Shown: positions 1-21,700 of the stretch, piece by piece | Layout of the letters: every line of letters starts with the position of its first letter | How positions within the stretch are numbered: the stretch's first letter is position 1 | The notes under the pieces: generated by a model | Database searches by the model: none | What the model was told of the DNA's origin: nothing | The model's input: only the letters and a program-made list of their open reading frames with translations | NCBI GenBank assembly: GCA_964569025.1 | Contig: CAZMSQ010000007.1 | Coordinates: 32,940 to 96,939, forward strand | Source of the DNA: an uncultured Saprospiraceae bacterium | GTDB lineage: Bacteria; Bacteroidota; Bacteroidia; Chitinophagales; Saprospiraceae | Length of the DNA stretch: 64,000 nt | Direction: 5' to 3' | Translations under genes and position numbers: made by a program

Positions 1-189
1 CTTGTTGCGGCAGGCTGTGCACTCCTGCTTCGTGCTGAATGGATAACCGGAAGTCTGCCAACGTACTACTTTGGAACGACACTACTCCTTGGTGGGGTCT
101 GGGTGAATGGAAACCTCCTTCCGCTGATTCGTCAATGGGTCATTCCGGGAGCATTTGATACCGAAACGCTGAGAAACGAAAATTCGTGA
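1..189 (+). CDS. 3' end of an upstream CDS (partial, hydrophobic C-terminus ...LLGGVWVNGNLLPLIRQWVIPGAFDTETLRNENS*); product unknown
   Basis: Frame-1 reading is open from base 1 to TGA at 187-189. The stop overlaps the downstream ATG (TGATG). No recognisable motif. Confidence 0.3.
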   Translation, partial: LVAAGCALLLRAEWITGSLPTYYFGTTLLLGGVWVNGNLLPLIRQWVIPGAFDTETLRNENS

Positions 190-461
190 TGCAAACTGTG
201 CATTTTACATCTGCCCTCAAGCGGTTTTTTCCTGATATTGAACCACAACACGTCGAAGGCCAGACCGTCGCAGAAGTGCTGGATAGGCTTGAAACCCAAT
301 ATCCCGGACTCAAATCATATCTCGTTACGGAAAATGGTGCGCTTCGTAAGCACATCAACATTTTTGTAGACGGCGACTTGATTTCAGACCGAGATACGCT
401 GACTGATCAGTTAGGCCAGAGTCAGGATATTCTCATTTTTCAAGCTCTCTCCGGAGGGTAA
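189..461 (+). CDS. MoaD/ThiS/CysO-family ubiquitin-like sulfur-carrier protein (ends ...ALSGG*)
   Basis: About 90 aa with a C-terminal Gly-Gly immediately before the stop, typical of MoaD/ThiS thiocarboxylate carriers. ATG at 189 (ORF track starts at GTG 186). Stop abuts the next gene. Confidence 0.65.
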   Translation: MQTVHFTSALKRFFPDIEPQHVEGQTVAEVLDRLETQYPGLKSYLVTENGALRKHINIFVDGDLISDRDTLTDQLGQSQDILIFQALSGG

Positions 462-1565
462 ATGCTATGTGCTGAAATGAACCGCAAACTTCTCGTGGCA
501 ACGTCAAAAGGTCTGGTTGTTTGGGACCGAAAAGGGCAAAAGGAATGGGTCGTCAGAGATGTCCACTTTCAGGGATTTCCAGTTTCGGTCATTTATGCAG
601 ACACCCGGCATCAAGTGTGGTGGGCTGGGGTCTCTCACCGGCACTGGGGTCAGAAATTGCATCGGTCGTTTGATGAGGGTAAGACATGGGATGAAATGCC
701 TGTGCCTGCATACCCTGACAAAGCCGAGTGGCGACCCGGAAAGGCTGCAGTCCTTAAGAAAGTGTGGACGATCAGCAGTGCAGGCCCGGATAAGCCTGAA
801 GGACTGTGGGTTGGCACAGAACCAGGAGGATTGTTTTACAGCAATGACTACGGACAATCATATACACTGGTTGAGAGTCTGTGGAATATGCCGGGCCGTA
901 TGGACCCAACCCAATGGTTTGGGGCAGGGCGCGATTTGCCGTTTATCCATTCCGTGGTAGTTGATCCGGCTGACAGCGATCATGTGTATATCGCGGTGAG
1001 CTGCGCTGGAATCTTCGAAACCACCGATGGCGGAGCAACGTGGGCAGCGAAGAATAAAGGACTCATCGCAGCCTATCTTCCGGACCCGCATGCTGAACAG
1101 GGCCATGACCCACATCTGCTGCTGGCTTGTACCTCCCACCCAAACGTGCTTTGGCAGCAAAACCACTGTGGGGTCTTCCGGACAGAAAATGGAGGGCAGC
1201 ACTGGTCGGATGTGTCAGATCCCAGAGGGTATGTGCATTATGGGTTTGCGCTCGCAGTAGATGAAAGTGATCCGCTCTCAGCCTGGGTGATTCCTGCAAT
1301 GAGCGATGATCAGCGCGTTCCGCCAAATCTGGCACTCCGGGTCTGCCGGACCAGAGATGGCGGAAAAACCTGGCAATCGCTTACCTCCGGATTGCCCGGA
1401 GAATGCTGTTTTGACATTGTCTTTCGACATGCTTTGGCTCGGCAGGGCTCATGCATGGCCTTCGGGTCAACCACCGGGAATCTGTTTTTCTCAGATAATG
1501 ACGGAGACTCATGGACGTGCCTGAGCCATGTGTTGGGCAGAGTCGAAACCGTTACTTTTGCTTGA
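462..1565 (+). CDS. BNR/Asp-box repeat beta-propeller protein (sialidase-like fold; function unknown)
   Basis: Six S-x-D-x-G-x-T-W-like Asp-box motifs: SFDEGKTW, SNDYGQSY, TTDGGATW, TENGGQHW, TRDGGKTW, SDNDGDSW. The ATG sits immediately after the MoaD-like stop, so the two are probably coupled. Confidence 0.65.
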   Translation: MLCAEMNRKLLVATSKGLVVWDRKGQKEWVVRDVHFQGFPVSVIYADTRHQVWWAGVSHRHWGQKLHRSFDEGKTWDEMPVPAYPDKAEWRPGKAAVLKKVWTISSAGPDKPEGLWVGTEPGGLFYSNDYGQSYTLVESLWNMPGRMDPTQWFGAGRDLPFIHSVVVDPADSDHVYIAVSCAGIFETTDGGATWAAKNKGLIAAYLPDPHAEQGHDPHLLLACTSHPNVLWQQNHCGVFRTENGGQHWSDVSDPRGYVHYGFALAVDESDPLSAWVIPAMSDDQRVPPNLALRVCRTRDGGKTWQSLTSGLPGECCFDIVFRHALARQGSCMAFGSTTGNLFFSDNDGDSWTCLSHVLGRVETVTFA

Positions 1566-1640
1566 AAAATTCTATTTTTAGAAAATAAATTCTAATTTCG
1601 AAATCTATTTTATTCATTTACCTTCTTAAATCTACACACC

Positions 1641-2510
1641 ATGATACCTGCTGCTTTTGACTACGCCGCCCCTGGGACGCTGGAGGAAGCCTTCGCGTTG
1701 CTGGAGGAGTACGGCGATGAAGCCAAGATTCTGGCAGGTGGCCACAGCCTGATTCCAATGATGAAGCTGCGATTTGCAGAGCCCGGGCGGTTGATTGACA
1801 TCAACAACATCCCGGGGCTTTCATACATCAAGGAAGAGGATGGTTACCTGAAAATCGGGGCAATGACCAGAGAATCCGACCTTGAAAGGTCCGATCTTAT
1901 CCCGGGGAAATATCAGATTTTCCTCGATGCCAGTAAGTTGATTGCTGACCCTCAGGTGCGGAATATGGGTACGATTGGGGGCAATATTGCACATGGAGAT
2001 GCGGCAAATGACCATCCTGCAGTTATGCTGGCAATGCGGGCAGAAGTGGTCATCAGCAGTTCGGAAGGATCGCGGGTTGTGCCGATCGATGAGTTTTTCT
2101 ATGGCTTCTACATGACAGCTGTGCAACCTCACGAAATTCTGACAGAAATCAGAATTCCAATACCGGGGCAGCATACCGGCAATGCATATCACAAACTTGA
2201 GCGCAAGGTCGGCGATTATGCAACAGCTGGCGTGGCAGCACAAATCGGTATGGATGCGCAAGGGGTTTGCACCTATGCCGGAATCGGGCTCACAAATGTC
2301 AATCCGGTGCCGATGGTTGCATCTCGTTCAGAGGAACTGTTGAAAGGCAATGTACTCACTGATGATCTCATCGCACAAGCTGCTCAGTATGCATCAGAAG
2401 ATTGCAATCCTTCATCAGACCTCCGTGGTGACGAAGATTTTAAGCGCGAAATGGTCAAAGTATTGACCAAGCGCATCATCAATAAAGCCATTGAAAGGGC
2501 GAAAGGGTAA
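1641..2510 (+). CDS. coxM: Carbon-monoxide dehydrogenase medium (FAD-binding) subunit, xanthine dehydrogenase family
   Basis: N-terminus [39 protein letters not shown] is the molybdopterin-dehydrogenase FAD-binding fold. Gene order M-S-L is typical of form I CODH. AT-rich promoter-like gap upstream (1566..1640). Confidence 0.9.
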
Positions 2511-2535
2511 TTATTTCAGACTAAAATCTCATCAG

Positions 2536-3039
2536 ATGACTCAACAGATTACACTCACCGTCAATGGTGAACAACACACCGTCGAGGTCGAACCACGGAC
2601 GCTTCTGGTTCACCTCATCCGCGAACAGCTTAGCATGACCGGTACTCATATCGGCTGCGACACCTCCAGCTGCGGAGCATGCACCATTCTGCTCGATGGT
2701 AAGTCCATCAAATCCTGCACCGTATTGGCCGTTCAGGCCAATGGGAAGGAAGTGATCACCGTCGAAGGACTGGCCACAACTGAAGGGTTGCACCCCATTC
2801 AGGAGGGCTTCAAGGAAAACCACGGACTCCACTGCGGATTCTGCACTCCCGGCATGATGCTGCGGGCTGTAGAGTTGCTCGAAGACAATCCCAATCCCAC
2901 CGAGGAGGAAATCCGCTGGGGAATTTCAGGGAATCTTTGCCGCTGTACCGGATACAATAATATCGTAAAGGCGATTCAATATGCCGGCGCGAAAATGCGC
3001 GGAGAGGAAACGCCATCTACTGAACCGGAATTCGTGTAA
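2536..3039 (+). CDS. coxS: Carbon-monoxide dehydrogenase small [2Fe-2S] subunit
   Basis: Two [2Fe-2S] cysteine motifs ([10 protein letters not shown]... and CGFCTPGM... NLCRCTGY). Start reassigned to ATG 2536 ([11 protein letters not shown]); the ORF-track start at 2491 would overlap coxM. Confidence 0.9.
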
Positions 3040-3090
3040 GTTCACGAATTGGTTCTCTTTCTTTTTTCACCATTCAAATACCTGCATACT

Positions 3091-5463
3091 ATGATACAGT
3101 GTAAAACCTCCAAGGAAATCAGCGGCATGGGGCACTCCATGAAGCGGAAGGAGGACGACCGCTTCATTCAGGGCAAGGGGAATTATGTCGATGACATAAA
3201 ATTGCCCGGCATGCTCTACATGGACATCGTCAGAAGCCCGTACGCCTACGCAAAAATTAAAAATATCAATGCTGAGCCTGCCCTTCAGATCCCCGGTGTT
3301 GTAGCTGTGGTAACCGGCAAAGATCTTGAAAAGTATAACCTGCACTGGATGCCGACGCTGATGTCGGATACACAGATGGTCCTGCCGACAGATACCGTCA
3401 TGTATCAGGCTCAAGAAGTAGCCGCCGTCATCGCTACCAGTAAATATGCGGCCCGGGACGGCCGCGAGGCAGTCCAGGTAGAATACGAAACCATGAAGCC
3501 GGTTGTCGACCCGTATAAGTCGCTCGATCCGGATGCCCCGGTGCTTCGTACTGACAAGGAAGGCAAAACCGATAATCACATCTGGCATTGGGAAGTGGGT
3601 GATAGAGACAAGACAGAGAAAGTCTTTTCGGATGCTGAAGTCGTCGTGAAAGAGCAGATGCACATTCCGCGAATTCATGTTTCTTCCATTGAAACCTGTG
3701 GTTGTGTGGCTGACTATGACAAAGTCAACAATCACCTGACGATGTACATGACTACGCAGGCACCGCACGCCATTCGTACCGTCATCGCACTGGTTGCCGG
3801 TCATGTAGGACTGACAGAAGAGAAAGTCAGAGTGATTTCTCCCGACATCGGGGGTGGATTCGGAGGGAAGGTGCCGGTGTATCCTGGGTATGTGATCGCT
3901 ATTGCCGTTTCATTCCTTGTTGGAAAGCCGGTGAAGTGGATTGAGGACCGGAGCGAAAACCTTCAGGCCGATTCATTCGCCAGAGATTATCACATCACTG
4001 CTGAGATGGCCGCCACCAAGGAAGGGAAAATTCTCGGGACGCGTTTCAAAATCTTAGCAGATCACGGCTATACCGATGCATCTGCCAACCCGTCAAAGTT
4101 CCCGACCGGACTGTTTTCCATCGGTACCGGCTCCTACGATTATGATACAGCCTTCATGGAGGCCGATGCGGTATATACCAACAAGCCACCCGGAGGAGTC
4201 GCCTATCGTTGTTCTTTCCGTGTGACTGAGGCTGTGCATGCTATTGAACGAATTACAGACCGCCTTGCCCTTGAAATCGGAAAAGATCCGGCTCAGCTGC
4301 GGATGGAAAACTTTATCAAAAAAGAGGATTTCCCTTGGAAATCACCCACCGGTTGGGAGTATGACAGCGGTGATTATCACGCGGGTCTGAAGAAGGCAAT
4401 GGATGCCATTGAGTACGACAACCTGCGTGTTGAGCAGGCGGAGAAGCGCAAAAAAGGTGAATTGATGGGCATTGGAATTTCCACGTTCACCGAAATTGTT
4501 GGTGCAGGACCTTCGCGTGATTTCGATATCCTTGGTATCAAGATGTTCGACTCTGCTGAAATCAGGGTCCACCCAACAGGCAAGGCCATCGCACGGTTTG
4601 GTACAAAGTCGCAGGGACAGGGTCACGAGACAACCTATGCACAGATTATTGCCGAAGAGCTCGGCATTCCGGCTGAGCATATTCAGATTGAAGAGGGTGA
4701 CACAGATACTGCGCCCTACGGTCTGGGTACTTACGCCAGCCGGAGTACGCCCACCGCCGGAGCGGCTGCAGCAATGGCAGCCCGCAAGTTGCGTGATAAG
4801 GCCAAAAAAATTGCAGCTTACCTGCTGGAGGTCTCTGAAGATGACCTCGAATGGGAGCCCGGCAAGTTTTTTGTCAAGGGGGCACCTGAAAAGGTGAAGA
4901 CCATTCAGGAAATTGTCTTCGCTGCGTACACCAACCACCCGCTGGGCATGGAGGCAGGATTTGAAGCGACCCACTACTATGATCCTCCAAACTTGACATT
5001 CCCCTCCGGAGCTTATATCTGCGTGGTTGATATCGACAAGGAGACCTACGAAATCAAGGTGCGCCGATTCGTAGCCATCGATGACTGCGGGAATATCATT
5101 AACCCGATGATCGTACAGGGTCAGGTGCACGGCGGTCTGACACAGGGCCTCGCTCCTGCCATGTACGAAGAGCTTATTTACGATGAAGACGGCAATATCC
5201 TGAACGGAACCCTGATGGACTATCTTGTGCCGACTGCGGTCGAGTCACCTAACTGGGAAACCGGCCACACCGTGACACCGTCGCCCCACCACCCGATTGG
5301 TGCCAAAGGTGTAGGAGAATCCCCGACAGTGGGAGCTCCGCCGGCTATTGCCAATGCCATCGTTGATGCCCTTTCTCCATACGGGATTACCCACCTGGAT
5401 ATCCCGATCACGCCCTACAAAATCTGGAAGGCGCTGAAGGAAAAGGGCGTGTCTCTCGCCTGA
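3091..5463 (+). CDS. coxL: Form I aerobic carbon-monoxide dehydrogenase large (Mo-Cu, molybdopterin cytosine dinucleotide) subunit
   Basis: Xanthine dehydrogenase family molybdopterin-binding large subunit. The form-I active-site signature VAYRCSFR is encoded at 4198..4221. Start is uncertain: ATG 3091, 3127 (MGHSMKRKEDDRFIQGKGNYVDD) or 3139. Confidence 0.9.
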   Translation: MIQCKTSKEISGMGHSMKRKEDDRFIQGKGNYVDDIKLPGMLYMDIVRSPYAYAKIKNINAEPALQIPGVVAVVTGKDLEKYNLHWMPTLMSDTQMVLPTDTVMYQAQEVAAVIATSKYAARDGREAVQVEYETMKPVVDPYKSLDPDAPVLRTDKEGKTDNHIWHWEVGDRDKTEKVFSDAEVVVKEQMHIPRIHVSSIETCGCVADYDKVNNHLTMYMTTQAPHAIRTVIALVAGHVGLTEEKVRVISPDIGGGFGGKVPVYPGYVIAIAVSFLVGKPVKWIEDRSENLQADSFARDYHITAEMAATKEGKILGTRFKILADHGYTDASANPSKFPTGLFSIGTGSYDYDTAFMEADAVYTNKPPGGVAYRCSFRVTEAVHAIERITDRLALEIGKDPAQLRMENFIKKEDFPWKSPTGWEYDSGDYHAGLKKAMDAIEYDNLRVEQAEKRKKGELMGIGISTFTEIVGAGPSRDFDILGIKMFDSAEIRVHPTGKAIARFGTKSQGQGHETTYAQIIAEELGIPAEHIQIEEGDTDTAPYGLGTYASRSTPTAGAAAAMAARKLRDKAKKIAAYLLEVSEDDLEWEPGKFFVKGAPEKVKTIQEIVFAAYTNHPLGMEAGFEATHYYDPPNLTFPSGAYICVVDIDKETYEIKVRRFVAIDDCGNIINPMIVQGQVHGGLTQGLAPAMYEELIYDEDGNILNGTLMDYLVPTAVESPNWETGHTVTPSPHHPIGAKGVGESPTVGAPPAIANAIVDALSPYGITHLDIPITPYKIWKALKEKGVSLA

Positions 5464-5480
5464 TCAAATTGCACAAAACC

Positions 5481-5526
5481 GGGAGGGAGCTGTTCGGTAT
5501 CGCCGAATCTCCCTCCCACATTTTCT
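5481..5526 (+). terminator. GC-rich hairpin (GGGAGGGAG...CTCCCTCCC) followed by a T-rich tract, between coxL and coxG; possible intrinsic terminator or attenuator
   Basis: Inverted repeat 5481-5489 / 5509-5517 with an inner TTCGG/CCGAA pairing, followed by ACATTTTCT. Confidence 0.4.
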
Positions 5527-5573
5527 GACCCATTCGAAATGGCCCGAGGGCCATTTAAAAATTCTCGTGCGTT

Positions 5574-6083
5574 ATGAAAGCTACGTTTAATAAAGTCTTT
5601 ACAGTCAACGAACCCGTTGAAAAGGTGTGGGATTACCTCAGCGATCCCAAGAAAGTCGTAACCTGCGTGCCTGGGGCAACGCTTGTTGATCAGATTGATG
5701 ACGATAATTACAAGGGGGAGGTAACCCTGAAGTTCGGCCCCATCAAAGCAAAATATGCCGGACAGATTACCTTTCTCGAACGTGATGGGAACGCCCATAA
5801 GATGGTGATGCAAGGCAAAGGACTCGATTCAAAAGGCAAGGGAAGTGCTGATATGCTGATGAACGGCCTGGTCGAGGAAAAGGACGGTGCCACTCAGGTG
5901 ACAGCCAGCATGGAAGTCTCTGTCACTGGTATGCTCGCCCAATTCGGATCCAGACTCATCAATGATGTCACGGATTCCGTATTCGACAAATTTATCCAAA
6001 ACTTTAAGGATAAGCTCGCCGGTAAAGAAGTTGACAATACAATGACTGCCGGATCCATGCTCAAAGGGATGTTTAAGAGATAA
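5574..6083 (+). CDS. coxG: CoxG-like carbon monoxide dehydrogenase subunit G (SRPBCC ligand-binding fold)
   Basis: N-terminus MKATFNKVFTVNEPVEKVWDYLSDPKKVVTCVPGA matches the CoxG family. Position in the cox cluster supports the call. Confidence 0.8.
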   Translation: MKATFNKVFTVNEPVEKVWDYLSDPKKVVTCVPGATLVDQIDDDNYKGEVTLKFGPIKAKYAGQITFLERDGNAHKMVMQGKGLDSKGKGSADMLMNGLVEEKDGATQVTASMEVSVTGMLAQFGSRLINDVTDSVFDKFIQNFKDKLAGKEVDNTMTAGSMLKGMFKR

Positions 6084-6199
6084 CTGATCTTCCGCCTGAC
6101 ACTTCTGCCGAAACTATCACAGCAAAACTTTCTTTGCAAATAAGTAAGCTCGTGGGGGTGTCTGGCGGAGATGTTTGCTCTTTAGAATTAAACAGTCAC

Positions 6200-7090
6200 A
6201 TGGATTATCTGAACGATACGTTACAACTGACAGAGGGTTTTGACCGCCAGAAATATCTGGTGGACGATGAGCTCGCAACCATTCTGTTTCTGATGATGAA
6301 GTTGCAGAAGCCCCTTCTGCTTGAGGGAAATCCTGGGGTTGGGAAAACAGAAGTTGCAAACGTTCTGGCTGGTTTTCTGGATACACCCCTGATCCGCCTC
6401 CAATGTTATGAGGGGCTTGATGTGCACTCTGCCGTGTATGAGTGGAATTACCAGAAGCAACTCCTTTCAATTAAAATTCAGGAGGGCATCGACCGGTCTG
6501 AAGCAGATAAGGAAGCGCATATTTTTGGAGAAGACTTCTTGCTGAAAAGGCCACTTCTGCAAGCAATAACCGCGGCCACCAAGGCACCGGTTCTGTTGAT
6601 TGATGAAGTAGATCGCGCCGACGAAGAGTTTGAGGCCTTTCTGCTTGAGCTGCTCTCTGCATTTCAAATCAGCATCCCAGAAATGGGTACCATCAAGGCC
6701 ATTCACAAACCATTTGTCGTACTCACCTCCAACCGGACCAGAGAGTTGAGTGACGCCCTGAAACGGAGGTGCCTGTATCATTGGGTGAATTATCCGGATC
6801 AGGAACGGGAAATCCGTATTGTGAGCAAGCACCTTCCGACAATTGATGCTCAGCTTGCAGAGACCTTGGTAAAAGTGGTAGGCGTGCTCCGCTCACGCAA
6901 GTTGAACAAGGCGCCGGGCATTGCTGAAACACTCGATTGGGCTTCGGGGCTGCTCGCCCTTGGATTTGAAAACCTTACAGAAGAAAGCATGTCCAAAACG
7001 CTCGGCTGCGTGCTCAAGTCAGCAGATGACCTAGAACGGATTAAAGCGGAAGGCCTTGGCGTTTTGCTCGCTGATATTCCAGTTTCCTGA
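6200..7090 (+). CDS. coxD: MoxR-like AAA+ ATPase CoxD (maturation of the CODH Mo-Cu centre)
   Basis: Walker A LLEGNPGVGKTEVA and a MoxR-type AAA core. Start placed at ATG 6200 (about 296 aa, the usual CoxD length); the ORF track begins at 6134. Confidence 0.8.
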   Translation: MDYLNDTLQLTEGFDRQKYLVDDELATILFLMMKLQKPLLLEGNPGVGKTEVANVLAGFLDTPLIRLQCYEGLDVHSAVYEWNYQKQLLSIKIQEGIDRSEADKEAHIFGEDFLLKRPLLQAITAATKAPVLLIDEVDRADEEFEAFLLELLSAFQISIPEMGTIKAIHKPFVVLTSNRTRELSDALKRRCLYHWVNYPDQEREIRIVSKHLPTIDAQLAETLVKVVGVLRSRKLNKAPGIAETLDWASGLLALGFENLTEESMSKTLGCVLKSADDLERIKAEGLGVLLADIPVS

Positions 7091-7095
7091 TTCCC

Positions 7096-8241
7096 ATGCC
7101 GGAGCACCACCATTTTACAAACTATGGATCACTGAAAGAGGCACTCATTGCCTTTGGTCAGTTGGCACGTGATAACGGCCTGAAGGTGGGCGTGCAGGAA
7201 ACTCTGGATGCCCTCATTGCTGCGCGGGAAGGGGTGATTATTGACCTGCGTGCCATGAAGTTTGCGCTTAAGGCCCTGTATTGTTGTAGCGAGGAAGACA
7301 GTGATGTCTTTGATGATCTCTTTGATTGGTTCTGGAATAAACCCAGAAATGCCGTGAAGAGCCACATTACCATGAAAAACCGGTCAAATCTGGTCAAGCG
7401 CTCAGCTGCATCGGTGGTCATGCTTGGCACAGGAAAGCAAAAAAACGGCCAGGAAGAGGAGTCAAAAAATACATCAGGCGCCAACGCAGTTGAACGCCTG
7501 CGAAAAACAGATTTCGCCAGTCTATCGGAAATCGACAGCCAATGGCTCGAGGAAATCGCCATGAAACTCTGGAAGCAGATGAGCCTGCGCCTCAAACGCA
7601 AACTGCGCTCGTCACCTGGCCGTGGGCAACTCGACCTGCGGCGTACAATCCGTCAGTGCATTGCTCACGGAGGTGACCCCATTGACTTATTCATAAAAAC
7701 CCGCAAGCCAAAACGCCAGAGGCTGATTGTCCTCCTTGATGTCAGTGGTTCAATGGACAAGTACAGTTTTTTTCTTCTGCGGTTCCTTTGCGCACTGAGC
7801 GCCCATTTTGAGCGCATCGAGGCCTTTTTATTCAGCACTCACCTCGTCCGTATCTCCCCCTGGCTAAATGCCCGCAATCTGGATGCGACGTTTCGCGAAC
7901 TTTCAGCCAGGGCTGACAATTGGTCAAGCGGTACCCGCATCGGAGAGTGCTTCCGCTCATTCAATGAAGAATATGCGAAGCGAATCCTAAACGGTCACTC
8001 GACAGTCATTATCTTGTCCGATGGTCTTGACACAGGATCGCCTGATTTGCTGGCCTCAGAGCTCAAGCGAATCAAGTTGCGCACCCGTCAGTTGCTGTGG
8101 CTCAACCCTCTGAAGGGGATGTCCGGATATCAGCCTGTGCAACAAGGTATGAGTGCAGCCTTGCCGCAGGTCGATGTGTTTGAGTCCGCACACAATCTTG
8201 ACAGCATTCTCGAACTGGAAAATTTCTTGCTGAATGTTTAA
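7096..8241 (+). CDS. coxE: CoxE, von Willebrand factor A domain protein
   Basis: VWA MIDAS motif LLDVSGSM. Lies directly after coxD with a 5-bp gap. Confidence 0.8.
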   Translation: MPEHHHFTNYGSLKEALIAFGQLARDNGLKVGVQETLDALIAAREGVIIDLRAMKFALKALYCCSEEDSDVFDDLFDWFWNKPRNAVKSHITMKNRSNLVKRSAASVVMLGTGKQKNGQEEESKNTSGANAVERLRKTDFASLSEIDSQWLEEIAMKLWKQMSLRLKRKLRSSPGRGQLDLRRTIRQCIAHGGDPIDLFIKTRKPKRQRLIVLLDVSGSMDKYSFFLLRFLCALSAHFERIEAFLFSTHLVRISPWLNARNLDATFRELSARADNWSSGTRIGECFRSFNEEYAKRILNGHSTVIILSDGLDTGSPDLLASELKRIKLRTRQLLWLNPLKGMSGYQPVQQGMSAALPQVDVFESAHNLDSILELENFLLNV

Positions 8242-9217
8242 TGAATTTCTCAAAAAAGTCCAGTCTCTTCACCAACAGCGTGTCCCCTTTGCCATGGCCT
8301 TCGTTGTGAACCGCCAGGTTCCATCATCCGGGAAGCCCGGAGATAAGGCAGTTATCGAGCAGGATGGCACAATCACCGGCTGGATTGGCGGAGGGTGCAC
8401 ACGGGGGATTGTCCTCAAAGAAGCTGCAGATGCCATCCGTGACGGAAAACCACGGATGCTCCGAATTAGCCCTGATCAGGATACCTCACCAAATCCAGGA
8501 GTGATGGATTATACAATGACCTGCCACTCTGGTGGCACCGTAGAACTCTACATTGATCCCGTCCTGCCAAGGCCGGAAATCCTCATTTTCGGCCGGTCGC
8601 ATGTTGCCCGTTCGCTCTCGAGGCTGGCCAAAGCGATGGACTACCACGTCACCGTGGCGTGCAAGGGAGCCGACTCAGTGCATTTTCCGGATGCCGACGA
8701 GTTGCGGGAAGCCCCCGTCGAGGCCCAATCTGCCCGGTCAAATACCTTTGCTGTGGTTTGTACCCAGGGTGAAGATGATGAAACTCATTTGATGCAGGCA
8801 ATCAGGAGTGGGGCAGGTTATGTTGCTTTTGTAGCCAGTCGCCGAAAGGCAAATGCTATTTTTCAGACGCTACGAAGTTTTGATGTCTCATTCGATGAGC
8901 TGCGTGAGATTCATACCCCGGCGGGTCTTGACATCAATGCAAAGCTTCCCGAAGAGGTCGCCGTCAGCATACTTGCACAGATTGTGTCCCATATCAGGAA
9001 TGAGAGTATTCAGGATTCTGCTGAGAAAAAGAGTGCCCATGAGCCAGCTGAAAACTCGGCATACTTCGTGAATCCAGTATGTCAGGTGCCTGTCGAGAAA
9101 AAGACTGCAAAATATGTTGTCCAATTTCAGGAAAGAGATTATTACTTTTGTTGTGACGGTTGCAAAGTTGCCTTTGAGGCTGATCCTGAAAAATATGCCT
9201 TGCCTGAGCCGGTATGA
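8234..9217 (+). CDS. coxF: XdhC/CoxF/CoxI-family maturation factor with a fused C-terminal YHS/TRASH metal-binding domain
   Basis: XdhC_CoxI N-terminal region (GWIGGGCTRGIVLKEAADAIRDGKPRMLRI). XdhC Rossmann-like C-domain. Extra C-terminal segment NPVCQVPVEKKTAKYVVQFQERDYYFCCDGCKVAFEADPEKYA matches the YHS consensus. Overlaps coxE by 8 nt. Confidence 0.8.
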   Translation: MFNEFLKKVQSLHQQRVPFAMAFVVNRQVPSSGKPGDKAVIEQDGTITGWIGGGCTRGIVLKEAADAIRDGKPRMLRISPDQDTSPNPGVMDYTMTCHSGGTVELYIDPVLPRPEILIFGRSHVARSLSRLAKAMDYHVTVACKGADSVHFPDADELREAPVEAQSARSNTFAVVCTQGEDDETHLMQAIRSGAGYVAFVASRRKANAIFQTLRSFDVSFDELREIHTPAGLDINAKLPEEVAVSILAQIVSHIRNESIQDSAEKKSAHEPAENSAYFVNPVCQVPVEKKTAKYVVQFQERDYYFCCDGCKVAFEADPEKYALPEPV

Positions 9218-9828
9218 TATGCGCCATTCTTCTCGCAGCAGGCACTTCTTCGCGGATGGGGTCATCCAACAAGCTTTTGCTTGATGTTGGCAACGGTCAG
9301 CCTCTGGTTCGGACAATGGCCGAGCAGTTGGCGGGAGCGCCATTTGACGAGGTGGTGGTAGTAACTGGCTTTGAGAGTGGGGATGTAAAATGTGCCTTGG
9401 AAGGGCTTCCGGTTCGGATTATCGAAAATCCCGCCTATGAATCCGGAATGACAACTTCCATTATTGCCGGTCTTAGAGCAATTGCACCGGACGCGCATTT
9501 TTTGGTGGGCCTGTCAGATATGCCATTGCTGACTGCCAAACATTACAAATTGCTGCTCGCAGAGTTTGAAGCGGCATTAATCGATACCGCCCACCCAATT
9601 GTAAAACCGTCACTGAACGGAGTCCCGGGTAATCCGGCAATCTTCCATGCAGTCTATCGAGAAGAGGTGCTCTCACTGACTGATCTCCATGCCGGATGTA
9701 AACCCGTTTTGCAGCATCATGCAGACAGTGTGATTCACCCAAAGGGACTTCCGGATGTGTTTTTTCTGGACATGGACCGTCCGGAAGAGTATCAGGAAAT
9801 GAGAATGCGGGTGAACCGCGAGGGATAA
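9214..9828 (+). CDS. mocA: MobA-like NTP transferase, probable molybdenum cofactor cytidylyltransferase (MocA-like)
   Basis: N-terminus ICAILLAAGTSSRMG is the nucleotidyltransferase P-loop of the MobA/MocA family. About 200 aa. Start overlaps the coxF stop (ATGA). Confidence 0.7.
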   Translation: MICAILLAAGTSSRMGSSNKLLLDVGNGQPLVRTMAEQLAGAPFDEVVVVTGFESGDVKCALEGLPVRIIENPAYESGMTTSIIAGLRAIAPDAHFLVGLSDMPLLTAKHYKLLLAEFEAALIDTAHPIVKPSLNGVPGNPAIFHAVYREEVLSLTDLHAGCKPVLQHHADSVIHPKGLPDVFFLDMDRPEEYQEMRMRVNREG

Positions 9829-9840
9829 TGCTTCGAAGAC

Positions 9841-10491
9841 ATGAAGCCAACAAAAAAACGGATACTTCTTGCTGCGAAGGACTGCTTCGCGACCAAAGGC
9901 GTTGCAGCAACAAGGCTTCAGGATATTGCCGAACTCGCAGGTATGAGTATCGGTAATATGGTTTACCACTTCCGTAATCAGGTTGAGATGCTGGAAGTAA
10001 TTTACACTAGCTTCCAACAGCGACAAGAAGAACTCCTACAGGATATTTGCCTAAGCCCGGTTTTTTCTAATATCGATGAGTATCTCCAGAATGCTTTTCA
10101 GCTCCATCAGGAATTTTTGTTTTTCCCCCTTCACACCCCGGAGGTGCTCAGTGCGTCGCCCCGAATTTCCTCTGAATGGCGTGAACATCTCCGGTGGAAG
10201 GACCTGCAGCTTGAGTTGATGTTGCGCTTCAATCAGGCCAGAGGCGCTTTAAGTTGGGATGAGGAAACATATCCTGTCGGTGATTTGGCAGTTTTATGGA
10301 GGCGGACAATCGACGGTTGGCCCATGCATCGGGTGGTTGAGCAAAAAAACCTCGATGATTTTTTGGCTTTTCGTAAGAGTGCATGGTCAGTGCTCCTCTC
10401 CCTGATCACACCTGAAGCCCGTCCTGAATACCTAAGGCTTCACTTTACTTCAGCGCCCCAAGTACAGAACACCGTAATTGATGAAGAATGA
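9841..10491 (+). CDS. TetR/AcrR family transcriptional regulator
   Basis: N-terminal HTH KKRILLAAKDCFATKGVAATRLQDIAELAGMSIGNMVYHFRNQ. Its stop overlaps the start of the next gene (ATGA). Confidence 0.85.
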   Translation: MKPTKKRILLAAKDCFATKGVAATRLQDIAELAGMSIGNMVYHFRNQVEMLEVIYTSFQQRQEELLQDICLSPVFSNIDEYLQNAFQLHQEFLFFPLHTPEVLSASPRISSEWREHLRWKDLQLELMLRFNQARGALSWDEETYPVGDLAVLWRRTIDGWPMHRVVEQKNLDDFLAFRKSAWSVLLSLITPEARPEYLRLHFTSAPQVQNTVIDEE

Positions 10492-11963
10492 GCGAGGCGC
10501 TGCTTGAAAATATCGTTGCGAAGCGCGTTGTGCTTGAAAAAGAGCTTGGGATCGACCTATACATTGACAGGAACGATATTGTACAGCGGGCATCTTGTTC
10601 TGTGACTCATCATCAAGGCGAAAGAGGAATTCTTGTCGGTAGAAATCCGCGTGAGATTCCGTACGTGGCTTCCCATTTGTTTGGATACTCCGGAGGTTCT
10701 CATCAGCAAGCCGCGACCATGGCTCTTGAGCATGCATGGGGTGCAAAGGTGCCCAAGAATGCGCGACTGCTCAGAGCCATCGGACAAGCTGCAGAAATTA
10801 TCCAGAGCTCTGTCAGGTGGATTTACACAGCATTTGGGCCGGGCTTGGCCCACCCTGCATTTTCAGGGCTTCAAGATTCAGAATATATCCGGGACCATTT
10901 TTTAGCGTTCAAAGGCACTTCTTTCCGCAGGGGAATCCTCGGCGCCACGTTCCCCATGTCGGTATATGCAGCAATTGCCGGACAATGGCCGCAGGCCCGG
11001 TTTGCCTGCCCCGGAGGCATCGGAACGATACCTGATGCAGCGGCCCTTGCCAGGGTTTCCGGCCTCCTGAGTCGGTTTCGTACCGAGTGGCTGGAAGGGG
11101 TTCTATTACATACCTCTGTAGATGAGTTTCTCGACATTCGTACGTCGGACCAACTCTTTAATTGGATAGATTCTGCCGGGACTCACCCCAAAAGCGATTT
11201 GGCTGCCATGCTGAGTGGTGCCTTGGAAAGAGGGTACCTCAACTTAGGAGACCACTCAGCGCCAACCCTGACGTATGGTGCATTTCATGTCAGTGATCAG
11301 GAAGAAGAATCGATTCCGGAGTTACTCTCATCCCATTCTTCCATTCCCGGGCTGTGTATCAACGGTAGTTCTGTTGATGTATTGAGCAGGGCATCCGTTC
11401 GAAGCTGTATCGAGTCGTTGGGGCAATCTCATCAAACCTGGTATCAGGGCCAACCGACAGAGGTTGGCCCGCTTGCACGCATGCTTTCCCTCCATGCTGT
11501 CCGCCCGGAAGGCAATCTGATTGGTCACATGGTATCTTGGTCAGGTAAAAATGCCTTTGCCAGAATTCTTGCGAGAATCCGCGAGATTATGGTTCTTGAA
11601 AACCGAATCAGATTCTGGCTGGCACAAATTGATCCAGATGAACCATGGAATCTGCCTGTAGAAGATAGAGATGGCTGGGGACTCGGTCTGACGGAAGCGC
11701 CGCGAGGAGCACTCGCCCATTTGGTTCGGATCAGAGATGGGAAAGTGGCGGATTATCAGATTCTGCCCCCAACTTTGCTGAACGTTTCCTCCGGATCCGG
11801 AGACTCTCCCATCGAGTCTGCCCTCAGCCAATTGGAAATCCCGAATAGAAATAGCCTCCATGAGGTTGGAATCATTGCTCGTTCTTTTGATGCCAGTGTG
11901 TCCTGTAAGGTCAGGCTGTTGAAACATCCCTCCGGAAAGGTGATCTTGACGTCAGATGAATAA
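10488..11963 (+). CDS. [NiFe]-hydrogenase large-subunit homologue with degenerate (cysteine-depleted) metal-binding motifs
   Basis: Read against E. coli HyaB by eye, the conserved blocks line up. [50 protein letters not shown] matches [56 protein letters not shown] and [23 protein letters not shown] also match. C-terminal [15 protein letters not shown] stands against LHSFDPCLACSTHVL. The L1 CxxC is replaced by FGYS and the L2 DPCxxC by DASVSC. Confidence 0.75.
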   Translation: [491 protein letters not shown]

Positions 11964-12143
11964 ACATGACAAATGGACGGCGAAAAGTGTATGAACCTTC
12001 GGTAAAATTGATTGTACTACAAATGATTGTTGTTCTATGAACGAGTATGTGATTATTTTAGAGTGCAGTGAGTCGTGCTGCTAAAGATTTAATTTCGAAG
12101 TTTTTTTCAAAAAGTCTACTTTCCCACACAGAATATCTGATTT

Positions 12144-12404
12144 ATGTGTCTTGCCATCCCCGGACGAATCAAAAGAATTGATCGATCAGATCCATTCTTG
12201 AAAAGAGCCCATGTGGCCTTCGGAACCCTTATGAAAGAGGTGTGCCTTGATATGACCCCTTTGGCTCGCGTAGGCGATTATGTCCTTGTGCATGCGGGCG
12301 TGGCAATTAACGTGGTGAATGAAGAAGAAGCGATGCGCACATTCTTATACCTTGAAGAATACGGGGGTCTTGAAGACCTCTTGCCGGAGAGAGACCAGAC
12401 CTGA
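12144..12404 (+). CDS. hypC: Hydrogenase maturation factor HypC/HupF
   Basis: Canonical N-terminus MCLAIPGRI and about 86 aa. Confidence 0.85.
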   Translation: MCLAIPGRIKRIDRSDPFLKRAHVAFGTLMKEVCLDMTPLARVGDYVLVHAGVAINVVNEEEAMRTFLYLEEYGGLEDLLPERDQT

Positions 12405-12407
12405 TTC

Positions 12408-13526
12408 ATGAAATTTCTCGAAGAATACAGGGACCCGCAATTGGCGGAGCAATACCTCAACCGTCTCCATTCAGTAACCACCGGAGAGTGGGTAATTATG
12501 GAATTCTGCGGGGGGCAAACCCACAGTCTTGTCAAAAACGGCCTCATTGATTTGCTTCCCGCCGGTGTAACAATGGTGCATGGTCCGGGGTGTCCAGTCT
12601 GTGTGACCCCACTCTCTATGATAGACGCAGCCATTCGCCTTGCTGAGGAAAAAGGGGTTATTTTGTGTTCATTCGGAGACATGCTGAGGGTGCCAGGCTC
12701 TTCTCAAAATTTATTGGAAGCCAAAGCAAAAGGTGCCGCAGTCCGTTTTTTTTACTCGCCTATGGAAGCTGTCGAATTGGCGCGTAAACATCCAGATCGG
12801 GAGGTCGTATTTTTTGCGGTTGGTTTTGAAACGACCGCACCTGCAAACGCCCTGTCAGTGCTTTATGCCAAACGGCTGGGTCTGAAAAACTATTCGCTCC
12901 TGACTTCTCATGTGTTGGTTCCTCCGGCTATTTCTGCGATAGTCGAAGATGAGGAGGCCTGTGTAGATGGTTTTCTCGGAGCAGGAAATGTCTGTTCGGT
13001 AATGGGACTCAAAGAGTACGAGCAATTAATCGACAGATACAATAAACCCTTGGTGGTGACAGGGTTTGAGCCCGTTGACCTCCTTCAGGGTATTCTCATG
13101 ACGGTGACACAACTTGAACGGGGGGAGTCGAAACTTGAAAACCAATACAGCCGGGTGGTGCCATATGAAGGGAACCCCGAAGCGCAGGCAGCGGTATATG
13201 AAGTCTTTGAGCGGTGTGACCGCGAGTGGAGAGGAATTGGCGTACTCCCGGGAAGTGGACTTCAGGTGACTGAAGAATATGCTGGATTTGATGCGATCAG
13301 AAAGTTTGGGCTCACGTTCAGATATGTGGCTGAGCCATCTGCCTGTATGGCAGGTGAAATTTTGAAAGGCACGAAGAAGCCAGTTGATTGCCCCCACTTC
13401 GGAACCACGTGCACGCCAGAAAACCCCCTTGGGGCTCCGATGGTTTCTTCAGAAGGGGCATGCGCCGCATACTATCACTTTCGCGCTATTTGCAGCGCTG
13501 ATTCACACCCAATACGTACCTTCTGA
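12408..13526 (+). CDS. hypD: Hydrogenase maturation factor HypD
   Basis: CGxH (EFCGGQTH), GPGCPVCV, FETT (VGFETTAPA), and a C-terminal Cys cluster plus SSEGACAAYY. Collinear with E. coli HypD along its full length. Confidence 0.9.
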   Translation: MKFLEEYRDPQLAEQYLNRLHSVTTGEWVIMEFCGGQTHSLVKNGLIDLLPAGVTMVHGPGCPVCVTPLSMIDAAIRLAEEKGVILCSFGDMLRVPGSSQNLLEAKAKGAAVRFFYSPMEAVELARKHPDREVVFFAVGFETTAPANALSVLYAKRLGLKNYSLLTSHVLVPPAISAIVEDEEACVDGFLGAGNVCSVMGLKEYEQLIDRYNKPLVVTGFEPVDLLQGILMTVTQLERGESKLENQYSRVVPYEGNPEAQAAVYEVFERCDREWRGIGVLPGSGLQVTEEYAGFDAIRKFGLTFRYVAEPSACMAGEILKGTKKPVDCPHFGTTCTPENPLGAPMVSSEGACAAYYHFRAICSADSHPIRTF

Positions 13527-14316
13527 CCACGTCAATGTGGTTTGCCGTTTCAGCTCCCGGGAATCCGGTGATGTGGCTGTTGTTCAATTCCCGTTCTGCG
13601 ATCCTTACGAACTCCGCAGAAAGAGGAAGATACGACCAGTGCCACTTTTCTTCCCGATATCCGCTTTCACGGCCGTCTCCATATGCTGTGTATGGCCTGC
13701 AGAATCCGTATTCGGAAGCGTGTGTTTCAAGCCATTGGAAGAGTTTTTGGCCCTGACCTGTTTCGAAATATGAATTGTCGAGCGCATTCAAGTCAATGTC
13801 AGTCCCCCAGTGATGGCGAGAGGTTCCTGGCATGGCACTGTATTCAAGGATGCGCAAAGCGCGTTCTTTTGGGTCAGCAATATCGAGTGCGGCATTGGTG
13901 CCGTCACTAAGTAGTCGAGCCCCCCCCCATTTGGCAGCCCAAATCGATTGCTGATATTCAAAATTCCTTGTGGCCGACAAAATACGTAGCTCATGGCCCG
14001 CCTGAGCTGCATCCCGGTGCATCCGAATGAAAGCTTCCAGCGCTTCTTTTCGTAAAAACATCCCATCGCGGGTGGCAAATTGACGGGGTATCGGGGCAAA
14101 TAAAGGGTGTTTCGCCGGTTCAAAATGGCCGCTCAGGTATGCAATGCTGGTCATCGTCGAGTCTTTTTGGCGAGTAATTGGTAGACACTCTTGCCCTTCT
14201 TTTCTCTCTTGCGTTGGCATCTGCCCTGGATCATCAACTTGCCTTTGCCCGCATGCTGCGAATGTGAAAGTTGCCATGGTAGCCGAAATTAGACAAAAGT
14301 ATCTGATATGCTTCAT
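13486..14316 (-). CDS. Peptidase M15 family (VanY-like D-Ala-D-Ala carboxypeptidase), lipoprotein
   Basis: Lipoprotein signal MKHIRYFCLISATMATFTFAAC. Zn-peptidase motif SRHHWGTDIDL. Start placed at ATG 14316. The 3' end overlaps hypD convergently by 41 nt. Confidence 0.7.
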   Translation of the reverse strand: MKHIRYFCLISATMATFTFAACGQRQVDDPGQMPTQERKEGQECLPITRQKDSTMTSIAYLSGHFEPAKHPLFAPIPRQFATRDGMFLRKEALEAFIRMHRDAAQAGHELRILSATRNFEYQQSIWAAKWGGARLLSDGTNAALDIADPKERALRILEYSAMPGTSRHHWGTDIDLNALDNSYFETGQGQKLFQWLETHASEYGFCRPYTAYGDGRESGYREEKWHWSYLPLSAEFVRIAERELNNSHITGFPGAETANHIDVVRRYVLGVNQRCK

Positions 14317-14479
14317 CAGGCCTGATGGTTTTGCTCTTGGTAAATTTCCATCCATTTTTATTCAAATTAAATGAAATGTATACTCACCTGATAAGATATG
14401 CTCAATATGCAGTTTTTCTTGCAATTCTTCACTTCGCACCGGTTGCAAGTGGTGGGCAGGGGCAATCAATGTTTAGATC

Positions 14480-18758: not shown

Positions 18759-21700
18759 TTGTATCGTCAAAGAAAAGTATTGACACAATCACAACTCTTG
18801 AAAAACGCTGGTCACATATTCTCTCTTTTTCTCACCTTCCTGCTGGTCCTTGCCATTCAGGTGGGATTCATGTCTTCTGCCCACGCTCAGGGTTGGGAAA
18901 GGAGTTATGGTCTGATCAACGACCTCAGTGATGAGGGATTCGATTTGGTTCCTTTGGCTGACGGAGGTGTGCTCGCAGTTGGGGTGTCTACGTTTTATTC
19001 GTCACAAGATGTGTTTCTGTTACGAGTGGATGTAGACGGAGATATCCTGTGGACAAGGAATATTGGTGGTACTTTTTCTCAGGAGTATGGCCGGGCAGTG
19101 GTGGTCGGGACGGATGGTTCTTTTTTCATAGGCGGCTACCGGTACAGCGGTAACATCGAGAAAAACAATCCATTTTTCCTGAAGGTCAGTCCCTCAGGTC
19201 AACCGCTTGCAACTCGTGAGCTCAAGCTTCCCAATGACGAAATCGTTACTGATATCATTTTGACCACGGAAGGCAAAATTGCTTTCATAGGAAGTGCTCA
19301 AAATCAAGATAGTCCCTCCGATCCATCGGATAATGTGCTGTTTGGCATCCTCGACCAGAACCTCAATGAGGAGGTAATGACGATTATTGCCGACACGCTG
19401 GCCAATGAAGCTACCGCCATGATTGAAACGGGAGATGGCAATCTGGTTTTCATTGGTGTGGCAGAGAATCCGGCAAGCAATAACTCACGGGACATTTATC
19501 TTCGCAAAATTCAGAAGTCCGGTACTCCGGTCTGGTCCTCCCCTGTGTATATCGGCGGTGAGGAAAATGATCAGGGAACTGACCTTGTAGAAGCCCCTAA
19601 TGGTGATTTGGTGATTTGTGGCTCAACTCGCAGCCAAGGCGCCGGGAGTTCAGATGTATTTGTTTCCCGCTTAAGCGCAGAAGGCCAAACACTTTGGTCA
19701 GAACCGCTGATCCTCGGCACCTCTCTTGTCGATGAGGCAACCCGTATCATCAGGACGATTGATGGCAATTACATCGTATCAGGCTATATTGAAACCTCAA
19801 GCCAGAATGTCGACCTGCTCATGGTCAAGATTGATGGTGATGGGAATATTCTGTGGGAGAAGACATTTGGCGATGAGGAAAAAATTGAGCAAGGTTTCGG
19901 AGTCGTGGAACAAGCTGACGGGTCACTCACGCTTGCGGGCGCAGTCATCCAGATTCCAAGTTTCGAAAGTGACTTGTATCTGGTTCGCACCAATGCTGAG
20001 GGTTCATTCCTGTCAAATTGGGTAAAAGGTCGTATTGCCGCTGATGCAAACCTCGACTGTTTTGCAGATACTGATGAAGAGGGTTTTCGTGATTGGATAG
20101 TTACGGCGACTCATGTATCAACTAACAAAGTGTTCATCGGTGATACCGACGCAGAGGGCAACTATCATATTCGCATTGATACTGGAACATATCAGGTACA
20201 ACTGACTCCATCAACAGATATCTGGTCGGCTTGTGTTCCATCTGTTGTGGTTTCGCAGACCTCGTTTTTTGATAGCTCAACGGTTGACTTCGCCGTACAA
20301 AGTACGGTAGATTGCCCGGTCATGCAGGTAGACATTAGTACACCGTTCCTGCGTCGATGCGTTGAAAACCGCTACTCTGTAAGATATTGCAATAACGGAT
20401 CTGTAACTGCTGAGGATGCCCGAATCGAGGTGGTTCTCGACCCGAATCTCACTGTCATTGAAGTTGTCAATGGCCCAGCTTATACCGGGACTGATACTCT
20501 GCTCTTTGATTTGGGGAATGTTCCTGCACAAGAGTGTGGTCGCTTTGAAATCCTGGTTCAGCATAACTGCACTGAGACAATCGAAGGACAAGCCCACTGT
20601 GTCTCAGCTCGTATTTTCCCGGATACGCTCTGTACGCTTCCCAACCCTGATTGGGACGGAAGCAGTCTCGCGGTAAGTGCACGCTGTGAAAACGGCCAGT
20701 TGCAGTTTTTACTCGAGAATAAGGGAGAGGAGGTTTTTGTACAGCCGCTTGATCAGTTGGTTCAGTACATTGTCATTGAAGATGACATCATGCTTCGTCA
20801 AGAGCCTGTGAAACCTCTGCAGCCTGGAGAGATTGATACCATTGATATTTCTAGCAATCAATTTTCAACATACAGAATGATGGTTGACCAGACTCCTGGT
20901 CATCCTGGAAAAAGTAATCCGACCATCGCAGTTGAGGGGTGTGTAGACAACACCGGAACACCTTTCGCCGTTGGCTACCTCACCATGTTTCCGGAAGATG
21001 ATGGCAATCCATCGGTTTCCATCAGCTGCGAAGAGTCAATCAATTCTCTTGTTTCTAATGTGAAAAGGGGCTATCCCAAAGGCTTCGGTGCGGGTAACTA
21101 CATCGAACGCCAAACCGATTTAACCTACACCGTCGTGTTCCATAACGTTGGAACCGACACCGCGTTCTATGTCGCAATCCGCGATACGCTTCCGGCCGAA
21201 GTACAACCCAACACACTCCGTTTTCTGAACAGCAGTCCTTCGGAGCCGACAAGCGTATCGTGGATTTCCGATGGCATTCTCAAGGTCGTCTTCGAATCAG
21301 CAGACCTCCTGCCAGACACTTCTCTGTATGAGTTCGGACACATTACTTTTGAAGTTTCCCAAAACCCTTCAAATGTTTCCGGCGACCAGATTATGAACAG
21401 CGCAGAGATTTATTTTGACTACAACGCACCCATTCAGACTGAGAAAACACTGCATACCGTTATTGACAGCCTCCAAGAGGTCATCATTGTCAGTGTGGAC
21501 CCTGCTCCGGGTTCCAACCAAAATCAACCTTTTCCCATAACCGTCTACCCAAACCCGTTTACACAAACTGCTACGTTTGAGTTGCACGCAGCTCAAACAA
21601 CAGAACCCAATTCCGTACATCTGTCCCAAAACCGTTTTTATCTGTTTGATGTAACTGGTAGACTAGTCAGGCACAATTATTTCGGCGGAACCAAATTTGA

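Follow-up and report, generated by a model that had tools for sequence, protein, structure and literature searches.

Genetic organization of the locus

The stretch of DNA analysed here (the window; 64 kb of contig CAZMSQ010000007.1 in assembly GCA_964569025.1) stems from what is probably a marine, uncultured Saprospiraceae bacterium and harbours a pair of hydrogenase maturation genes, hypC and hypD, at the end of an operon for the aerobic oxidation of carbon monoxide (CO). Based on open reading frame (ORF) calls and Pfam matches, the pair closes a single block of genes on the forward strand (186–13526), the other 50 kb of the window being made up of housekeeping genes. Following a ThiS/MoaD-like gene and a BNR-repeat gene in its 5′ part, the block comprises coxM (1641–2510; FAD_binding_5/CO_deh_flav_C), coxS (2491–3039; Fer2_2) and coxL (ORF 3049–5463; MoCoBD) of a form I Mo-Cu CO dehydrogenase, then coxG (5574–6083), coxD encoding an AAA+ protein (6134–7090), coxE encoding a VWA protein (7096–8241), a coxF/XdhC gene fused to a YHS domain (8234–9217) and a gene for a MobA-like nucleotidyltransferase (9214–9828). 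Thereafter come the four genes with which this report is concerned: tetR for a TetR-family repressor (9841–10491; PF00440 and PF13972), a gene for a 491 aa homologue of the hydrogenase large subunit (hereafter LSUH; 10488–11963; PF00374), the start of which is overlapped by tetR by 4 bp, hypC (12144–12404; 86 aa; PF01455 and TIGR00074) and hypD (12408–13526; 372 aa; PF01924 and TIGR00075). Since hypD overlaps a convergent gene for a VanY peptidase on the reverse strand (13486–14355), the operon ends at hypD, just as an earlier reading of this DNA from its sequence alone (the original prediction) had proposed.

CoxL carries the active-site loop GGVAYRCSFR, i.e. the form I signature AYXCSFR is present, and passes the NCBIfam equivalog TIGR02416 for aerobic CO dehydrogenase (score of 1235.7 against a cut-off of 991). 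The order of the cox accessory genes is syntenic across the related loci (numbered L001 onwards), and the C-terminal YHS domain, which is metal-binding, is found on the CoxF/XdhC-type maturation protein of the window as well as on its orthologues in all of these loci. In L002 and L025, genes for MbnP and a MauG-like peroxidase, i.e. for copper acquisition, lie convergent to and downstream of hypD.

Both members of the hypC-hypD pair are intact and pass their family cut-offs, and their predicted extent (12144–13526) is exact. HypC starts with MCLAIP, confirming its essential N-terminal cysteine, has the conserved histidine in VLVHAGVAI and scores 61.1 against TIGR00074 (cut-off 48); neither Cys2 nor the conserved histidine varies across 17 loci. 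HypD is matched by PF01924 along its entire length (E-value 5e-146), scores 468.7 against the equivalog TIGR00075 (cut-off 192.8) and retains Cys41, GPGCPVC, GFETT and the C-terminal [4Fe-4S] cysteine cluster. Among the HypD motifs named in the original prediction, GPGCPVC, FETT and the C-terminal cysteine cluster hold, but the supposed ‘CGxH’ actually reads CGGQTH; this is not a degenerate motif, as canonical Bacteroidota HypDs share it. The histidine of the PxHVS motif is replaced by asparagine in the window HypD (AGNVCS) and in many cox-linked relatives, canonical Bacteroidota HypDs having AGHVC.

A conserved four-gene module linked to cox

Together, tetR, the LSUH gene, hypC and hypD make up a conserved four-gene module that is derived from a Huc hydrogenase cluster and always linked to cox. 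The homologues of LSUH form two groups, i.e. clade A (~490 aa), which includes the window, and clade B (~530 aa). Wherever the flanks of a clade A locus suffice (around 20 loci), the four genes stand in this order beside form I cox genes, the remaining clade A loci being cut by contig ends; in none of the loci with adequate flanks is the module separated from cox or adjacent to structural genes of a hydrogenase, and tetR is found in every related locus. The trio of LSUH, hypC and hypD, the co-occurrence of which had been put forward as a point to check, does therefore recur as a unit, with tetR as a fourth partner, to which the original prediction had not referred, and in synteny with cox. The module is located downstream of coxMSL-G-D-E-F in the window and in L001, L002, L005, L007–L011, L013, L018, L025–L027, L035 and L060, and upstream of coxMSL in L014–L016, i.e. 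its linkage to cox survived a rearrangement that left two gene orders. Considering that a conserved gene set from a Huc cluster always travels with cox, the hypC-hypD pair is probably not a stray maturation pair.

All loci with the module belong to metagenome-assembled genomes (MAGs) or metagenome contigs of Saprospiraceae, Lewinellaceae or Phaeodactylibacter. A search of genome contigs for relatives of LSUH gave MAGs only and no cultured genome, while a metagenome scan added three relevant loci, two of them from the window species, its other hits being distant hydrogenases. At 50 % clustering, the LSUH family amounts to about seven representatives.

One way to account for so strict a linkage is that LSUH and HypCD serve as a non-regulatory helper in the assembly, repair or protection of the Mo-Cu enzyme, e.g. 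through the [4Fe-4S]/thiol-disulfide chemistry of HypD or as an iron-carbonyl buffer for CO. The gaps between the module and the cox maturation genes coxD, coxE and coxF are small and hold no terminator, from which co-transcription may be read, and this too would suit a helper. However, no known maturation step of a Mo-Cu CO dehydrogenase needs chemistry of this kind, the genes are absent from most form I cox operons in other phyla, and the tight pairing with tetR would be left unexplained, all of which makes a helper function quite improbable.

One further locus (L029; JGI Ga0452205_030027) represents a strain variant of the window species with 99.1 % nucleotide identity and a clean 7,782 bp deletion relative to positions 678–8459 of the window. 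The deletion takes most of the BNR gene, coxMSL, coxG, coxD, coxE and the 5′ part of coxF, and leaves mobA-tetR-LSUH-hypC-hypD intact; a real population variant and an assembly chimera are both possible.

Origin of LSUH and loss of its metal ligands

LSUH descends from the large subunit of a Huc-type (group 2a) hydrogenase. Its closest relative among solved sequences is the Huc large subunit 7UTD (phmmer; E-value 2.8e-50), and its AlphaFold2 (AF2) model, which has a predicted local distance difference test (pLDDT) score of 90.3, superposes on 7utd_A with a template modelling (TM) score of 0.86. No NCBIfam hydrogenase model is passed by LSUH, the best being NF033181 with 139 bits against a cut-off of 600. 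Clade B has all four metal-site cysteines (RICGICGGSH and SFDSCLVCTVH), matches the Mycobacterium Huc large subunit with an E-value of 1e-202 and sits in complete clusters, i.e. TetR, small subunit, large subunit, HycI-type endopeptidase and, further on, HypA, plus HypB-C-D-E.

Canonical [NiFe] enzymes use two of their four metal-site cysteines, the second and fourth, as bridges between Ni and Fe, the first and third being ligands of Ni alone. The window LSUH has HLFGYSGGSH in place of RxCGxCxxxH and DASVSCKVR in place of DPCxxCxxH, which leaves one of the four metal cysteines. The original prediction had called this homologue cysteine-less; the loss of ligands stands, but the fourth cysteine survives. 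Likewise, its statement that the cysteine ligands are missing is largely true of the window lineage but not of the family, the members of which normally keep three cysteines or at least the two that bridge Fe. The first cysteine is Phe in every member of clade A, three cysteines being the family maximum, and Ser replaces the third in the window, P0470 and P0473, i.e. in three lineages. Every lineage has kept the second and fourth, with the exception of the window lineage and its sister L032, both of which have Ser in place of the second. The terminal histidine of DPCxxCxxH is gone in nearly all of clade A (representative P0472 keeps it), and a segment of about 33 residues is deleted relative to the Huc large subunit. 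The last cysteine is itself polymorphic (C/F) among variants of the window species, 2 of 15 having Phe, and the ligands across the relatives thus form a series that runs from three cysteines over the two Fe-bridging ones to one and, in these two variants, none.

The partners of a working hydrogenase are missing as well. Neither HypA, HypB, HypE or HypF nor a small subunit or endopeptidase was found in the 64 kb of the window, either by Pfam on nearly all long ORFs or by tblastn with the complete Huc/Hyp set, in agreement with the original prediction. The small subunit, endopeptidase and hypA/B, all of which are present in true Huc clusters, are also absent from the flanks of 15 related loci. 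All that nickel and catalysis require has been lost: within LSUH the first cysteine and the terminal histidine together with the cleavage site, and around it the genes for the small subunit, the endopeptidase and HypA/B. The cysteine pattern of clade A is the one to be expected if the protein still ligates the iron moiety and no longer nickel, with the window lineage as a degenerate exception.

Public labels for LSUH (P0122–P0125) read ‘nickel-dependent hydrogenase large subunit’ or ‘coenzyme F420-reducing hydrogenase alpha subunit’. Since the protein is annotated as a hydrogenase yet has lost metal ligands, metagenomic surveys can miscount these Saprospiraceae as H2 oxidisers. Other degenerate Huc-like large subunits (P0047, P0048, P0474 and P0476) keep the N-terminal CxxC and have lost the fourth cysteine (SFDTCLLYNIRV, SFDTCLVSIVQV). 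The degenerate large-subunit gene in L004 (1649–3106; P0047 and P0048) adjoins a FadL/Toluene_X outer-membrane gene, with no hyp genes on the 5 kb contig.

Selection on the module genes

Relative to the window, CoxL of the related loci is around 91 % identical, HypD 65–71 %, HypC 60–69 %, TetR 34–41 % and LSUH 36–43 %. LSUH is the fastest-evolving gene of the cluster, with 73 columns that are invariant. All four module genes are under purifying selection: they are full length in around 24 lineages, and pairwise ratios of nonsynonymous to synonymous substitution rates (dN/dS) among the closer relatives, in which dS is partly saturated, range over 0.03–0.14 for LSUH, 0.01–0.10 for hypD, 0–0.06 for hypC and 0.03–0.10 for tetR. 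Within the window species (99 % nucleotide identity), LSUH shows 7 nonsynonymous against 6–8 synonymous changes, i.e. a ratio of nonsynonymous to synonymous polymorphism (pN/pS) of around 0.3, where around 25 nonsynonymous changes would be expected under neutrality; the corresponding pN/pS of hypD, hypC and tetR is 0–0.07. Since LSUH is under purifying selection, it is not a pseudogene. What looks like a frameshift in the sister lineage L032 is explained by a run of N in the scaffold and does not mark a pseudogene.

These figures bear directly on the explanation that the module is the decaying remnant of a hydrogenase cluster that lies next to cox by chance and is being lost. Decay would fit the rapid evolution of LSUH, including the ligand loss in the window, the higher within-species pN/pS and the C/F polymorphism at its last cysteine, as well as the L029 strain variant without cox structural genes. 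However, the four genes have stayed full length across the lineages with dN/dS of at most 0.14 at saturated dS, the nonsynonymous changes within the species fall far short of neutrality, the 73 LSUH columns do not vary, and the module came through a rearrangement still linked to cox. The selection data largely refute this explanation, and we regard it as extremely unlikely.

Singleton changes of the window lineage at otherwise invariant columns number 13 in LSUH, 12 in TetR, 4 in HypD and none in HypC, i.e. TetR and LSUH are co-accelerated in this lineage. The mirror-tree rate correlation of TetR with LSUH (r 0.58–0.81) carries little weight, as the pairs are non-independent.

A putative TetR operator shared with Huc clusters

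A perfect palindrome, TTAGAAAATAAATTCTAA (TTAGAA-N6-TTCTAA; 1578–1595), lies 46 bp upstream of the coxM start and is the putative operator of TetR. No other site in the 64 kb matches at up to one mismatch, 0.11 matches being expected. A Bacteroidetes-type −7 promoter box of the cox operon, TACTTTTG (1553–1560, forward strand), proposed from its match to the consensus TAnnTTTG only, precedes the operator by 18 bp and the ATG of coxM by 81 bp. The same TTAGAA-N6-TTCTAA dyad is found 51–63 bp upstream of coxM in L005, L007, L009 and L010, and the L001 subclade has TTAGTA-N6-TACTAA, a symmetric variant. In L012, L014 and L016, in which the module comes before cox, the dyad stands upstream of tetR, with a further dyad between hypD and coxM in L014 and L015.

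Genuine Huc clusters (L003, L020 and L022–L024) have the dyad as well, upstream of hucS and of hypB. Bacteroidota Huc clusters have one to three copies of TTAGAA-N6-TTCTAA near the TetR gene, the sites in L003 being at 7798–7815, 8884–8924 and 20311–20328. Considering that dyads at hucS and hypB occur next to a TetR gene, this type of TetR is a candidate regulator of Huc hydrogenases in the phylum. The recognition helix SVGN[ML]AYH[FY] is common to the Huc-type and cox-type repressors, while their C-terminal domains have diverged. We infer that TetR represses the cox operon via the putative operator and that it came with LSUH and hypCD from a Huc cluster.

The original prediction had also pointed to the 180 bp gap before hypC (11964–12143) as a possible place for a promoter. 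No promoter-like or terminator-like site was found there on the forward strand, only a weak operator-like dyad, TTCGAAGTTTTTTTCAAA, with two mismatches (12094–12111; 50 bp upstream of hypC). Dyads with one or two mismatches also occur 49–59 bp upstream of hypC in L012, L014, L015 and L025, a quality that arises by chance as well. A conserved regulatory region can be ruled out, as the gap varies from 12 to 325 bp across loci and has no shared sequence. In the Lewinellaceae/Phaeodactylibacter subclade comprising L005 and L007–L009, it is full of imperfect short tandem repeats of the CAATCAAACAATATAGCAATCC type, the length of which varies by genome.

In the loci in which the module precedes cox, another gene was observed. 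Between hypD and coxM, L014 encodes a predicted membrane protein of 148 aa that contains CGC and CPYC motifs and matches nothing in Pfam (6682–7128), and this Cys-rich ORF, with a copy of the operator upstream, is also present in L015, L016 and at the 3′ end of L012. In the last of these (5872–6084), hypD is followed by the first codons of the ORF known before coxM in L014.

A separate lineage of cox-linked HypD

The canonical HypDs of Haliscomenobacter, Arundinibacter and Arcicella are 65–69 % identical to the window HypD, i.e. about as similar as the cox-linked ones. In a neighbour-joining tree with Escherichia coli as the outgroup, all HypDs of known cox context nonetheless fall into one clade (bootstrap 70/100), which lies apart from the HypDs of verified Huc clusters, including those of Lewinellaceae and Phaeodactylibacter MAGs. 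The comparison with hydrogenase-linked HypDs that the original prediction had suggested therefore separates the two kinds even within the same families. Two members of the clade whose context was not known were looked up afterwards, and both proved to be cox-linked, as the clade predicted. Five substitutions are specific to the clade, i.e. V40F beside the essential Cys41, one at position 121 and three in the PxHVS motif (198, 204 and 205). Since the cox-linked HypDs form a clade of their own, the pair is a long-standing paralogue rather than a recently displaced copy.

At one locus (L012; 1–1892), a hypE that is complete and ends in PRIC and a hypF of which the contig end leaves only the 3′ part are located directly upstream of the operator and the module. 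The original prediction had considered an Fe-CO handling module; because hypF and hypE adjoin the module in L012, a chemistry of ‘Fe-CO without cyanide’ is not implied. Going by this locus, the module can apparently hold the whole set that forms Fe(CN)2CO, and never hypA/B, a small subunit or a protease. The L012 HypE is 64 % identical to that of Haliscomenobacter, the best 120 Bacteroidota HypE matches listed being at least 72 %, which hints at a module-specific HypE lineage.

Such findings have to be weighed against an ordinary role in maturation, i.e. that HypCD, together with LSUH as an oxygen-protective Fe(CN)2CO scaffold similar to HoxV and HupK, bring about the maturation of a true Huc-type hydrogenase whose genes lie elsewhere in the genome, and that they stand in the cox operon as part of a co-regulation of H2 and CO oxidation by the same TetR and operator. 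This would agree with HypD and HypC being as conserved as canonical Bacteroidota HypDs, at 65–70 % identity whichever comparison is made, with the constraint on HypCD being undiminished in the window lineage despite the ligand loss of LSUH, with the same operator preceding hucS, hypB and coxM, with hypF-hypE beside the module in L012, and with the precedent of HoxV and HupK as Ni-free scaffolds that act with HypC and HypD (PMC12134894; PMC3534401). However, every genuine Huc cluster examined in the same families has its own hypC and hypD and no LSUH-like gene, the cox-linked HypDs are paralogous to those of Huc clusters instead of nested among them, and the module is never beside hydrogenase genes but always beside cox. 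Moreover, no accession of the MAG series of the window (MGA158...) is among the members of ten Bacteroidota HucL clusters, which is a weak negative. Overall, we consider ordinary maturation rather unlikely, though a contender to be taken seriously. As to the alternative left by the original prediction, i.e. HypCD being merely parked at this locus or repurposed with the degenerate large subunit, the comparative evidence (synteny, the separate HypD clade and the operator at the cox promoter) favours the latter, while the former is kept alive.

Comparison with known systems

We found no description of a hydrogenase-like protein or of an orphan HypCD in aerobic cox operons in the literature searched, among which were surveys of marine CO dehydrogenases (2026) and of marine hydrogenases (2023). 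Nickel-free large-subunit homologues and hydrogenase-derived sensors are already known as such; their combination with a Mo-Cu CO dehydrogenase operon under a TetR is new.

HoxV of Cupriavidus necator and HupK of Rhizobium leguminosarum, which are enzymatically inactive, Ni-free, large-subunit-like proteins that work with HypC-type chaperones and HypD and carry Fe(CN)2CO, would be the best functional analogue for the trio of LSUH and HypCD. HoxV is a Ni-free inactive large-subunit homologue that carries Fe(CN)2CO (PMC12134894), and HupK, of around 37 kDa, is encoded in the hydrogenase operon between hupF and hypC (PMC3534401). In contrast to these proteins of around 37 kDa, which stem from group 1 hydrogenase operons of Proteobacteria and feed a real large subunit, LSUH has 491 aa, originated independently from group 2a Huc and is encoded beside a TetR gene in a cox operon that has no structural genes of a hydrogenase nearby. 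With Huc itself (Mycobacterium smegmatis 7UTD, a group 2a enzyme for atmospheric H2) and its Bacteroidota orthologues, LSUH has the fold in common, and with the Bacteroidota clusters also the TetR, the operator and the types of HypC and HypD. It differs from Huc by the family-wide loss of the first cysteine, the loss of two further cysteines in the window, and the loss of the terminal histidine and cleavage context.

The group 2b proteins HoxBC/HupUV provide a precedent for a hydrogenase acting as a gas sensor that controls transcription, without C-terminal processing. These regulatory sensors retain nickel along with all four cysteines, have a small subunit and pass their signal to a histidine kinase, whereas LSUH has a destroyed nickel site, no small subunit and a TetR repressor as its proposed partner. 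The CO sensors CooA and RcoM would share with the module only the proposed role, i.e. switching on CO-oxidation genes when CO is present; they are haem-based single proteins with no relation in sequence or cofactor, unlike the HypCD-matured iron-carbonyl protein acting on a TetR that is proposed here.

Possible role of the module

Considering the linkage, descent and regulation of the four genes together, we tentatively favour, at somewhat less than even confidence, the explanation that a nickel-free, HypCD-loaded derivative of Huc works with the TetR that controls cox, possibly sensing CO. The module was cut out of a Huc-type (group 2a) cluster and became established within the form I cox operon in Saprospiraceae and Lewinellaceae, where TetR would repress the operon, and hence itself, through the putative operator. 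HypC and HypD would build an iron-carbonyl centre, i.e. Fe(CN)2CO where HypE and HypF are available, which may then be passed to LSUH or held in a complex with it, most lineages keeping precisely the two Fe-bridging cysteines. The resulting nickel-free iron protein would be unable to oxidise H2 and would instead serve the CO-oxidation system, most plausibly as a signal input (CO or the cofactor-loading state) that relieves repression by TetR. Since LSUH of the window lineage has lost two more ligands, the iron site would there have to stay on HypCD, or the mechanism would have changed in this branch.

The more specific proposal, i.e. that the nickel-less large subunit and its own HypC-HypD scaffold are a CO sensor that controls TetR and thereby the cox operon, is on present evidence unlikely. 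HypCD has been found, when isolated, to carry Fe-CO in the absence of CN and to bind CO supplied from outside (PMC4161419), and exogenous CO goes into the cofactor (PMC12134894); by analogy with this published chemistry of HypCD and HoxV, the chemistry of the favoured explanation would be plausible.

Several points weigh against the favoured explanation as a whole. The link of LSUH and HypCD to TetR or to CO, including the sensing step, is pure inference. In the window, LSUH has a single canonical ligand, which is polymorphic, yet HypC and HypD are very strongly constrained; HypCD therefore has a value that is independent of cysteine ligation by LSUH, and this conservation in the face of ligand loss keeps alive the idea that the pair serves another client. 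As TetR already regulated the ancestral Huc cluster, its presence need not mean a new sensory partnership. In addition, the support for the HypD clade is moderate, and with all loci coming from MAGs and metagenomes, a co-resident hydrogenase may be encoded elsewhere in the genome.

Implications

The putative regulon, defined by TetR and TTAGAA-N6-TTCTAA, ties together genes for the scavenging of H2 and of CO in Bacteroidota. The ligand series of LSUH offers a ready-made set of natural mutants with which the ligand needs of an Fe-only large subunit can be addressed. If the module does serve CO oxidation, Hyp chemistry, i.e. the iron-carbonyl scaffold of HypCD, would be used outside hydrogenase biogenesis, and a candidate would be at hand for the signal input of aerobic cox regulation. 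Should the sensor reading be true, these Saprospiraceae and Lewinellaceae would possess a new class of CO sensor and, with it, a second independent case of a hydrogenase turned signalling device.

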